Source of the DNA: Octopus vulgaris
Lineage: Eukaryota
NCBI GenBank assembly: GCA_951406725.2
Contig: OX597833.1
Location: forward strand, 35,030,001-35,094,000
Length of the DNA stretch: 64,000 nucleotides
Direction: 5' to 3'
The number at the start of each line of letters is the position of its first letter. Position 1 is the stretch's first letter. The notes under the pieces were generated by a model, which was given only the letters and a program-made list of their open reading frames with translations, was not told the DNA's origin and did no database searches. Positions 7,023-58,494 of this stretch are shown here, in pieces. The position numbers and the translations under genes were made by a program.

Positions 7023-7552
<530 letters not shown>

Positions 7553-7576
7553 ATATATATATATATATATACATAC

Positions 7577-8958: not shown

Positions 8959-9009
8959 AGCTTCCTGAAGATTTCTCTTGAATGAAACAGTTCTAGTCCT
9001 GTAGAAGCT
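8959..9009 (+). ncRNA. Type I hammerhead ribozyme (monomeric, complete)
   Basis: AGCUUC-CUGAAGA-u-UUC(ucuu)GAA-u-GAAA-CAG(uucuaguc)CUG-UA-GAAGCU: 6-bp stem I, full core, GUA cleavage after 9003. Confidence 0.85.
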
Positions 9010-9020
9010 CCTTCTATATA

Positions 9021-10953: not shown

Positions 10954-10998
10954 CTCACACTGAGGACGGGTTACCACCCAGAAACTTAGGTCTGTGAG
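10954..10998 (+). ncRNA. Type I hammerhead ribozyme (palindromic stem III, dimer type)
   Basis: CUCACA-CUGAGGA-c-GGGU(uacc)ACCC-a-GAAA-CUUAGG-UC-UGUGAG; GUC cleavage after 10992. Confidence 0.85.
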
Positions 10999-11161
10999 TA
11001 TCATGTAAGGCTAAAAATGGGAGTGATGACCTCCCTTGCAAATGCTATACGGACACAATCTGTGTGTCGATAGCAGTTGGAAAAGATGTTTTTCTGATGC
11101 TAAAACAAAAGTAACATCGTCCTTTATAGGACTGCCACATTCTGTTGGCATGTAAACTTTA

Positions 11162-13757: not shown

Positions 13758-13761
<4 letters not shown>

Positions 13762-13955
13762 CGTTTTTGGATTTGGTTTGCAAGATTCTTTATATGAGTT
13801 CGTGTGTTGAAGCATACTCTGTTGTGTCTGGGGAGAGTCATTCTCTTTTAGTGCCTTATTATTTAACACACTCACCGGTAAAATTTCCACTTATTTTCTT
13901 ATTTTTTATTTTCTAAAATTTTCGTTGCGTCTTGCAACCTTTTCAATAGTCTTGA

Positions 13956-13960
<5 letters not shown>
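13758..13960. mobile_element. PLE-terminus-like repeat family H3 within (TA)n
   Basis: Homologous to 7395-7552; flanked by (TA)n on both sides; carries a hammerhead motif on the minus strand. Confidence 0.7.
13913..13949 (-). ncRNA. Minimal hammerhead, U3-A8 variant
   Basis: Minus strand CUA-UUGAAAA-g-GUUGC(aagac)GCAAC-GAA-AAUU-U-UAG; palindromic stem III. Confidence 0.6.
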
Positions 13961-15289: not shown

Positions 15290-15442
<153 letters not shown>

Positions 15443-15443
15443 A

Positions 15444-15657
15444 CTTTATTTAAAGCAGCAGAAAATTCAACAAAACCTGTTACTCTGAGTTTCCCGTTGC
15501 CGTTCATCGGAGAGTTTTTGCTAGCAACGGCAACGGGAAACTCAGAGTAACAGGTTTTGTTGAATTTTCTGCTGCTTTAAATAAAGCATATTACTCTACC
15601 ACTGGTATTTGAGTACTCTTTTTTCCACCTTGTTTCACATTTATGTGTTTACTCCGG
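15444..15657 (+). mobile_element. Hairpin mini-element family H1: perfect 61-bp inverted repeat + 70-bp tail
   Basis: 15444-15504 is the exact reverse complement of 15526-15586, 21-nt loop; AATAAA; flanked by (TA)n. Confidence 0.9.
15472..15518 (-). ncRNA. Hammerhead motif, CCGAUGA core
   Basis: Minus strand AAAACUCU-CCGAUGA-aCG(gcaa)CGg-GAAA-CUC(a)GAG-UA-ACAGGUUUU; stem I imperfect. Confidence 0.6.
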
Positions 15658-15675
15658 TATATATATATGTATATA

Positions 15676-56554: not shown

Positions 56555-56604
<50 letters not shown>

Positions 56605-56607
<3 letters not shown>

Positions 56608-58435
56608 ATGAACTCCCTAAAATCCATAAATCCAAACAGATCAAGAACAGCTTAAAAGACTCCTATACTCCAGATATAAAGATTCTCAAATTACGCCCGA
56701 TTGTTGCAGGACCTGCATCCAACATCCAAAGAGGGAGCAACTTGCTGGGCATAATTTAAAAACCTTTATGTTCCTAGTTTCATCACAGATGATATGGATT
56801 TATTAAACCATGTCCTAGAACGGATAGATAAAGAGATAGTACTAGTTAGCTTTGAGGTAACTAGTCTCTATACAAATATCCCCCATATATATGGACTAGA
56901 AGCAGTAGAATTCTGGATGAACAAACACCCACAAAGAACTCAAGAGAGATTCTCAAAAAAATTTATACTTCTGTTTACAGATAGTACTGAAAAACAACTA
57001 CTTCTTTGATAATTAATACTATCTACAAATACAAGGCACTGCGATTGGGACGAAAGTCGCACCAACATTTTCCACACTAGTAATGGGATACTTAGAAGAA
57101 AAAACTGAACCCCCATCCAGAACTACTTTTGACAACCACTTCCAAACCTACCTTATCGGAAACTGGAAAAGTTTCTTAGAACCGAAATAAGGAGGCCCTT
57201 ACAATTTTGTTTTTAAATTAATAAATAACATTTATGTATCAATCCAATTCACAAATGAATGAAAAGGAACTCTCCTTTTTGGACATCCAGATAATTAAAG
57301 AAAATGAGACGGTTACAACTGACCTCTATTACAACAACACAGACACACACCAATATTTAGCCTTTAGATCTTGCCACCATTCCTATACAAAAAGGAACAT
57401 ACCATTTAGTATGGCAAGGCGCATATGCCCAATAGTCTCAGATACTGTTAGATAAAAGAAACAACCGTAAAACTTAATATATTCCTTCAGAAACCAAAAT
57501 ATCCCAACAAATTAATTCAACATGCCATAACGAAAGCAAAGGAAATCTCAATCTCTACCGTATGGAGAAACACTCAGACCGGGTGCGAAAATAAAAATAC
57601 AAATACAAATATTCCGTTTGTAGTCACCCACAATCTTAGAAAACACAACATCCTGCACTCAGCCAAATGATACCTCCCAATTCTACGTCAATCACCAAAT
57701 CTCCAACGAATAAATTTTAAAAATCACAAATTATCAACAGTCCTAACAGAGACTCCTAACAAAGGCGAGATTCACATTTGAAAAAAAAAATAAAACGGTG
57801 CAAGGTGGGAAATGCGAATTATTTGAGCAAGGGACAACCAAAAGACTCAAGAATGGGAAGGAATCAAAAGTGAATGCAAGCCTAAATTGCAAACCAGTAT
57901 GTCCACAATGCAATGAAAAGTACATTGGGGAGACAGAAATGAAACTCAGCAGCCGTGTAAATGTGCATAAACAACAAATTAGGAATTTATCTCTTAGGAA
58001 TATCCCATGCAGTGAACATCTTGTTATCTGTAGAAATGTAAAATTTAAAATATTCCCATTTGAGAAAATAAACGATGAAAATGTAAAATTAGAACGACAA
58101 AAAAAAAAAAAAGAGTAATTTATAAGAATTCTAAATCCGAAATTAAACCGAAAATAACCGACATTCCATATAATAAACAATGGCAAAAGAATATTTATGA
58201 CCAAAACCTAAAGTCCGAAAATAAATCGGAAATAATACTGCCACTACCACAAAACCAAAAACTTCCTCTTTAAGAGCATATATGTTTGAAAAGGTTTAAC
58301 GAAAGCGTTCACACACTAGAAAAAAACGTCTTCCCTAAAAGGTTAGCAACATCCTCATTTTCATAACATTCTTTTAAAAAGAAAAGATTTTTTTTAGAAA
58401 AATCACCTTTACATTTCAAAAACTGTATTAAATAA
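56605..58435 (+). mobile_element. Decayed Penelope-like element (RT, GIY-YIG, 3' hammerhead)
   Basis: LPKIHK, LRPIVAG, LVSFEVTSLYTNIP, QGTAIGTKVAP, LSFLDI, TDLYY..TDTHQYL, CPQCNEKYIGET..LSSR..H; bounded by (TA)n. Confidence 0.9.
58283..58313 (+). ncRNA. Minimal hammerhead, U3-A8 variant, in PLE 3'UTR
   Basis: UGU-UUGAAAA-g-GUU(u)AAC-GAA-AGCGUU-C-ACA; AGCGUU is self-complementary with G-U pairs. Confidence 0.6.
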
Positions 58436-58450
58436 TCCTCATAGACTTTC

Positions 58451-58494
<44 letters not shown>

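Follow-up and report, generated by a model that had tools for sequence, protein, structure and literature searches.

In a decayed, transposon-derived stretch of the Octopus vulgaris genome, a motif of 31 nt resembles a minimal hammerhead ribozyme with U3 and A8 at the two core positions where C3 and G8 are usual. This locus raises the question of whether the motif is a real hammerhead, which element carries it, and whether the U3-A8 pair is the accident of one dead copy or the maintained state of a family. All coordinates refer to the window, i.e., the whole stretch of 64,000 nucleotides that was analysed.

Hammerheads of this kind have precedents. In its passages on Penelope-like elements (PLEs), Cervera & de la Pena 2014 (PMC4209133) described about 1,300 U3-A8 minimal hammerheads in the Cercyon PLEs of Schistosoma mansoni; PLE minimal hammerheads (min-HHRs) carried a base between positions 9 and 10.1, a G10.1-C11.1 pair and a palindromic stem III, and they cleaved weakly, as dimers or trimers. 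In supplementary Fig. S3 of the same paper, S. mansoni(4) has the UUGAAAA core and Saccoglossus a core with U3-G8, and some min-HHRs have a stem I of only 2-3 bp. According to an excerpt of Perreault et al. 2011 (PMC3088659), U3-A8 hammerheads occur naturally and are active in vitro; they show the same compensatory core pair, and that excerpt gives no link to PLEs. A section of PMC3884650 places the formation of the C3-G8 pair in the catalytically primed fold, and dimer-cleaving hammerhead variants were reported by Lunse et al. 2017, as cited in part of the review PMC6765202. For the PLE hammerhead of Anolis, the relevant sections of PMC11167929 report that the protein of the element is needed for activity, that cleavage is dispensable for insertion in vitro, and that no RNA-seq reads start at the cut site. 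Any novelty that the first-pass annotation of this DNA implied for the variant is overstated: U3-A8 min-HHRs in PLE pseudo-LTRs (pLTRs), including the UUGAAAA core, are found in PMC4209133. U3-A8 min-HHRs in PLEs were thus already published in 2014, and the window family is an added host and PLE lineage. Our literature search turned up no paper that treats the window's family or a repeated switch of the 3:8 pair among PLEs, although Lunse et al. 2017 may cover U3-A8 variants.

The element and its hammerhead motif

The features of the element are as follows.

56558..56595, no strand: (TA)n tract at the element's truncated 5' end, from sequence
56604..58148, forward strand: decayed, 5'-truncated Penelope-like ORF (RT core, thumb, C-terminal GIY-YIG), from tblastn
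57747..58118, forward strand: longest open stretch, 123 aa, a GIY-YIG remnant, from protein matches
58149..58453, forward strand: 3' pseudo-LTR or tail region with the hammerhead, from its position past the ORF end and its many copies in four runs
58454..58493, no strand: (TA)n tract at the element's 3' end, from sequence

Intact RT/GIY-YIG proteins of 698-769 aa align colinearly across 56604-58148 in tblastn, and P0151 matched the window at E 4e-99 in 4 pieces covering query residues 224-767. This colinear homology points to a canonical EN+ Penelope-like element. The ORF is broken by several frameshifts, stops and deletions, which also affect the region of the RT catalytic motif and the cysteine linker. 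The 123-aa stretch had 317 protein relatives at E<=0.001 in a HMMER search, a word-based protein search for longer relatives found none, and a scan of viral contigs gave no confirmed relative of the element. Pfam returned no relevant family on four open fragments of the broken ORF, the 123-aa stretch included; among the relatives, P0017 and P0156 match RVT_1 and GIY-YIG, and P0151 matches GIY-YIG only. The linker cysteines between RT and EN are present in the relatives and largely deleted in the window copy. Such a linker is a feature of Neptune that Nematis shares (Craig et al., PMC8557442, in the part consulted), and in the relatives it may suggest a Neptune or Nematis affinity. The window copy is 5'-truncated at a (TA)n tract, has no second pLTR in cis and lies in a region of 28% GC.

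The motif begins 134 nt past the coding end as placed by tblastn, i.e., in the position of the 3' pseudo-LTR, which agrees with the earlier estimate of about 130 bp after the GIY-YIG region of a Penelope element. Its parts are listed below.

58283-58313, forward strand: type I minimal hammerhead motif, read directly from the sequence
58280..58285, forward strand: 5' strand of stem I, which has 6 bp in the family majority; the window copy pairs 58283-85 only
58286..58292, forward strand: catalytic core box UUGAAAA, with U3 at 58286, A8 at 58291 and A9 at 58292
58293..58300, forward strand: extra G after A9 (58293), then stem II, 2 bp and a 3-nt loop, closed by G10.1 (58294) and C11.1 (58300), from sequence
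58301..58310, forward strand: GAAA box (58301-04), 4-nt insert (58305-08), U16.1 (58309) and C17 (58310)
58304-58309, forward strand: stem III palindrome, 6 nt, from sequence
58311..58316, forward strand: stem I, 3' strand, from sequence and duplex energies; 58311-13 is the partner of the window copy's 3 bp

The min-HHR core boxes N3-U-G-A-N-N8-A, GAAA and U16.1-H17 are all found in the window copy, and both the extra nucleotide between 9 and 10.1 (G58293) and the G10.1-C11.1 pair (G58294-C58300) are present; the predicted cut site is 3' of C17, 58310. Stem I has 3 bp in the window copy, and stem II has only 2 bp, as compared to 3-8 bp in the PLE min-HHRs of Fig. S3. The isolated 31-mer has no stable fold (z = +0.82), and its MFE structure is not a hammerhead. 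The motif with its U3/A8 core, extra G after A9 and tiny stem II is present in the sequence as first annotated, and judged by its sequence features, complete except for the unusually short stem II, it is a real U3-A8 minimal hammerhead.

How often such a motif arises by chance was estimated with a min-HHR descriptor whose features came from the literature, but which was applied only after the motif had been seen. Dinucleotide shuffles of the 341-nt element tail matched it in the U3-A8 form in 2 of 20,000 cases, and in 5 of 20,000 when any combination of C/U3 and G/A8 was allowed. Thirty block shuffles of the whole window gave 0.03 matches per 64 kb, against two real U3-A8 matches, at 58286 (+) and 13946 (-). 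The Rfam scan had no hammerhead match at the motif at E<=10, and in the whole window the best 150 of 605 rows held microsatellite-driven matches only; because the canonical 10960 motif described below was missed as well, Rfam is uninformative on hammerheads here.

Among known hammerheads, the motif is most like those of the S. mansoni Cercyon elements Sm3/Sm4 (PMC4209133, as figured there) in its U3-A8 pair, extra base, G10.1-C11.1 pair and palindromic stem III. It differs in its stem II, 2 bp instead of the 4-6 bp of Sm3/Sm4 and the 7-8 bp of the main S. mansoni families, and in its stem III insert, 4 nt instead of 2 nt. The host is another one than that of Cercyon, and so probably is the PLE lineage, to go by the cysteine linker of close relatives. 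With the PLE hammerheads of Drosophila, Aedes, shrimp and rotifer in the same paper, and with the dimer-cleaving variants of Lunse et al. 2017 as cited in PMC6765202, the motif shares a short palindromic stem III that needs a dimer and a position after the ORF, whereas the examples of these hosts in Fig. S3 have C3-G8 cores. The hammerhead of Poseidon PAc from Anolis (PMC11167929, sections consulted) also lies in a PLE pLTR and depends on the 3:8 pair for activity, but, unlike the window motif, it has a C3-G8 core, belongs to another PLE clade and has been tested experimentally.

Sister copies and folding energies

Logan contigs from 4 of 24 runs (X1, X2, X14 and X15; 4 samples, 4 studies and the 4 organism labels A, B, E and F) were matched to 58150-58440 at 80% likeness, a threshold that favours copies resembling the window copy. 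The four runs held 196, 118, 99 and 242 contigs matching the tail, and since there were many per run and most were less than 95% alike, the family is multicopy. One X2 contig was identical to the window copy over 58150-58312, which means that the letters of the window copy are not assembly errors. Summed depth had a local peak over 58270-58320 in X1 and X15, weaker in X2 and X14. The list of runs containing this stretch included no RNA run, which says nothing about expression.

Letter shares, weighted by depth and not counts of copies, showed that the majority differs from the window copy at four positions, namely 58279 (C in 61-71% of depth), 58280 (G in 62-90%), 58282 (G in 84-94%) and 58308 (C in 77-97%). 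With the majority letters at 58280, 58282 and 58308, stem I reaches 6 Watson-Crick pairs and 58304-09 becomes a perfect palindrome. The self-complementary stem III that had been proposed holds in the window copy only if G.U pairs are counted. The centre of loop II (58297) is a mix of T and A, with A in 23-49% of depth. At 58300, C is replaced by T in 12-30% of depth, and G10.1 then pairs as G.U; 58300 and 58306 are CpG cytosines with T in 10-32% of depth. No other letter at 58286 (U3) or 58291 (A8) was among the 40 difference rows listed for the four runs, with 146 more rows outside the listing; the weakest listed row stood at about 22% in one run, a value that serves as a ceiling for unlisted positions only by reasoning from the ranking. 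From these contigs, U3-A8 appears to be the majority state of the family rather than private decay, although a minority of copies with C3 or G8 may exist within the family. Directly behind the hammerhead, at 58325-58400, depth falls, and about 65-75 nt are absent from several contigs of the family or exchanged in them, which marks a variable pseudo-LTR segment.

Energies were calculated with a nearest-neighbour model without tertiary terms, in which the majority version carried the four majority letters. An explicit double-hammerhead dimer came to -16.9 kcal/mol with the majority letters vs +3.5 for the window copy, and the monomer fold to +1.3 vs +9.1 kcal/mol. The unconstrained cofold MFE of the majority version was -19.2 kcal/mol, in a fold that differs from the double hammerhead. 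The stem I duplex had -6.2 kcal/mol in the family majority and -0.1 in the window copy, where the probability of the closing pair of stem I was 0.003, and the palindrome duplex -8.3 and -3.7 kcal/mol. In terms of this model, the family motif is built for dimer action, like the dimer-type PLE hammerheads, and the window copy, after three substitutions relative to the majority, is predicted to be inactive and unable to fold as a hammerhead. A cleavage assay on the window 31-mer would probably be negative for the trivial reason that this copy is a decayed member.

Positions 3 and 8 in related elements

With an alignment of 11 related proteins as the query, metagenome contigs yielded 213 confirmed PLE loci, of which we took the best 80; in 14 of these the 3' flank is shorter than 200 nt. 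When scanned without regard to the letters at positions 3 and 8, 31 of the 80 had a motif (24 C-G, 5 U-A and 2 other), as compared to 2/80 on the antisense strand and 0.28 in shuffled sequences. Under a second rule, 39 of 80 loci had a motif, 28 of them C3-G8, 7 U3-A8, 3 U3-G8 and 1 G3-G8, with controls of 4/80 on the antisense strand and 0.61 in shuffles; C3-A8 was not seen among these 39 motifs, and 41 of the 80 loci had no match under this rule. For 33 distinct motifs, the table of C/U by G/A gave p = 1e-5, uncorrected for kinship. The covariation of positions 3 and 8 to which the first-pass annotation pointed holds across related elements, and its warning that searches with CUGANGA only would miss the variant proved right for the 7 U3-A8 motifs of the 39, plus the 3 with U3-G8.

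All four non-Watson-Crick motifs (U3-G8 and G3-G8) have an extra base before the core. In the 3' flanks concerned, L006, L009, L033 and L040, this single base separates stem I from the core, and residue 8 is a G. Insertion may account for these motifs, or they may mark intermediate steps in a change between the C3-G8 and U3-A8 states; U3-G8 is possibly such a step. The closest scored relatives (L001, L003, L004 and L005) have, in the same layout as the window copy, a C3-G8 motif 102-161 nt past the ORF, with a 4-nt palindrome and a short stem II, and in L003 an identical motif flanks the ORF on both sides. Since the C3-G8 motifs of L003, L019 and L020 have a stem II as short as that of the window, the 2-bp stem II looks, from sequence comparison, like a trait of the clade. 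By eye, L007 is also U3-A8, but it failed both scans and was left out of the counts, and the 3' flank of L047 has a hammerhead-like motif with C3, U8 and a non-palindromic stem III. Twelve loci (L050, L056, L057, L058, L060, L061, L063, L064, L065, L067, L069 and L070) form a well-supported PLE subclade in which neither scan found a hammerhead in spite of 500-3000 nt of 3' flank; a different ribozyme or loss may account for this. A MAFFT alignment of 20 motifs placed stems II and III out of register.

The IQ-TREE tree had 32 rows, i.e., 23 C-G loci, 7 U-A loci, the window copy and P0151; motif-less loci, the near-duplicates L026, L037, L039, L068 and L079, and the four non-Watson-Crick cases were left out. 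Its motifs were tied to ORFs by adjacency, six of them on the 5' side, and the window row was assembled from tblastn segments. The tree needs 6 state changes; strong branch support makes at least 4 of them unavoidable, and none of the 200 bootstrap trees (0%) is compatible with a single origin. As the tree is unrooted, gains and losses are indistinguishable. The window copy is sister to P0151 (100/98), represented here by its protein, and adjoins the C3-G8 loci L001 and L002 (89/93). One reading is that the swap between C3-G8 and U3-A8 was fixed repeatedly, 4-6 times among 31 scored PLE lineages, never through C3-A8 and sometimes as U3-G8, which would imply selection for real in vivo catalysis despite the 2-bp stem II; we hold this reading only tentatively and lean towards doubting it.

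Other hammerheads in the window

The window holds at least four other hammerhead-like families, at 8965 (+), 10960 (+), 13946 (-) and about 15500 (-), the last with a sister copy near 290 (+). The motifs at 8960-9010 (+) and 10954-11000 (+) are type I hammerheads of the canonical C3-G8 form, each with 6 bp in stem I; in the 10960 hammerhead, which Rfam missed in a local scan, stem III is palindromic. A (TA)n-flanked piece at 13760-13960 contains a second U3-A8 minimal hammerhead (13949-13913, minus strand), of a family unrelated to that of the reported motif and better formed, with a 5-bp stem II, a 4-nt palindrome and a 3-bp stem I, in a layout that resembles L072 and L074. A sister copy of this 13946 family at 7390-7555 has a 5' inversion, and its start corresponds to 13917-13915. 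The predicted cut of the family falls between 13916 and 13915, within 1-2 nt of the start of the inverted arm, and the inversion start is possibly a footprint of in vivo cleavage, chance also being conceivable with n = 1. The third family (15436-15665 and 170-349) consists of head-to-head inverted units between (TA)n tracts. In its 15.5-kb copy, U4 of the core is changed to C. The sister copy near 290 keeps the first box intact, with C3-G8, but has lost sequence behind the GAAA box, and the junction of its inversion overlaps with stem I and the cut site.

The first-pass annotation had taken the motif at 58283-58313 as an anchor of these orphan ribozymes to PLEs. The comparison does not bear this out: a DNA comparison of five hammerhead-bearing window pieces gave no significant similarity between families (best E against the tail 0.11-0.16), and tblastn found no PLE protein remnant in the window outside 56-58.5 kb. 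The short (TA)n-flanked pieces with inverted sister copies of the 13946 and 15500 families are typical of PLE ends, and by this analogy a link of the other window hammerheads to PLEs is plausible.

Discussion

The explanation that we consider probable is that the window holds a decayed min-HHR copy of a multicopy PLE family in which U3-A8 is the majority, that intact sister copies likely cut slowly after C17 as dimers, probably with the help of a protein, and that the window copy itself is inactive, as predicted. In this mechanism U3 would pair with A8 as C3 does with G8 and so place the 2'-OH of residue 8 as the general acid. Two motifs, carried by one tandem pLTR-ORF-pLTR transcript or by separate transcripts, would pair through the 6-nt palindrome of stem III, which would build two active cores, and cleavage after C17 would release an element RNA of unit length; the element's own protein probably assists the cleavage of sister copies. 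Points against this explanation are the 2-bp stem II, much shorter than the 7-8 bp of the Schistosoma motifs and without a visible contact between loop I and loop II; the cofold MFE, which even with the majority letters is another fold; the 41 of 80 related loci that had no match; and, for the Anolis element, insertion in vitro that did not depend on cleavage and the lack of RNA-seq reads starting at the cut site.

A hammerhead-derived motif may also have stopped cutting and persisted as an RNA structure that binds protein or dimerises, or simply have been amplified with a dying family. This would fit the 2-bp stem II without tertiary loops and the CpG-type changes that make up 10-32% of depth at 58300 and 58306, as well as the low in vitro activity of PLE min-HHRs (PMC4209133) and the cleavage-independent insertion of the Anolis PLE in vitro (PMC11167929), as given in the sections of these papers used here. 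We regard it as unlikely, because positions 3 and 8 change jointly across lineages (C3-A8 in 0/39) and the 3:8 pair belongs to the catalytically primed fold (PMC3884650, section cited above), so that its maintenance points to selection on that fold. That the window copy itself still self-cleaves is a good deal less probable. Its core nucleotides are all intact and a stem I of 2-3 bp occurs in some published min-HHRs (PMC4209133, Fig. S3), but three substitutions weaken its stem I, from -6.2 kcal/mol in the majority to -0.1, and its palindrome, from -8.3 to -3.7; the closing pair of stem I is predicted hardly to form (0.003), and the second pLTR is missing in cis.

The heavy decay of this copy, together with the C3-G8 state of its nearest scored relatives L001 and L002, could suggest that its family is an ordinary C3-G8 one and that U3 and A8 arose as two private transitions in the dead copy. 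But true private changes, those at 58279, 58280, 58282 and 58308, show as majority differences of 61-97% in all four runs, and 58286 and 58291 are absent from the difference rows listed, which makes private transitions highly improbable, slightly more so than activity of the window copy. A chance match in A-rich DNA would agree with the AT-rich core UUGAAAA, the 28% GC of the region, the z of +0.82 and the lack of an Rfam hammerhead match. It is nevertheless barely credible, as shuffles gave only 2 matches in 20,000, the motif is at the expected position, sister copies pair better than the window copy, 39 of 80 related loci have the motif, and Rfam overlooks the canonical 10960 motif as well.

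The window copy itself is a relic. The swap turns up repeatedly in the PLE tree and is no oddity of Schistosoma, a recurrence that would be less novel if Lunse et al. 2017 already lists U3-A8 variants across PLEs. With its 2-bp stem II, the family is a very small natural hammerhead in which to ask whether PLE ribozymes cut in vivo and need protein. If the recurrent swap is indeed selected and the cut footprint is general, insertion ends would map in vivo ribozyme cleavage, and they would settle whether PLE hammerheads process the retrotransposition template.
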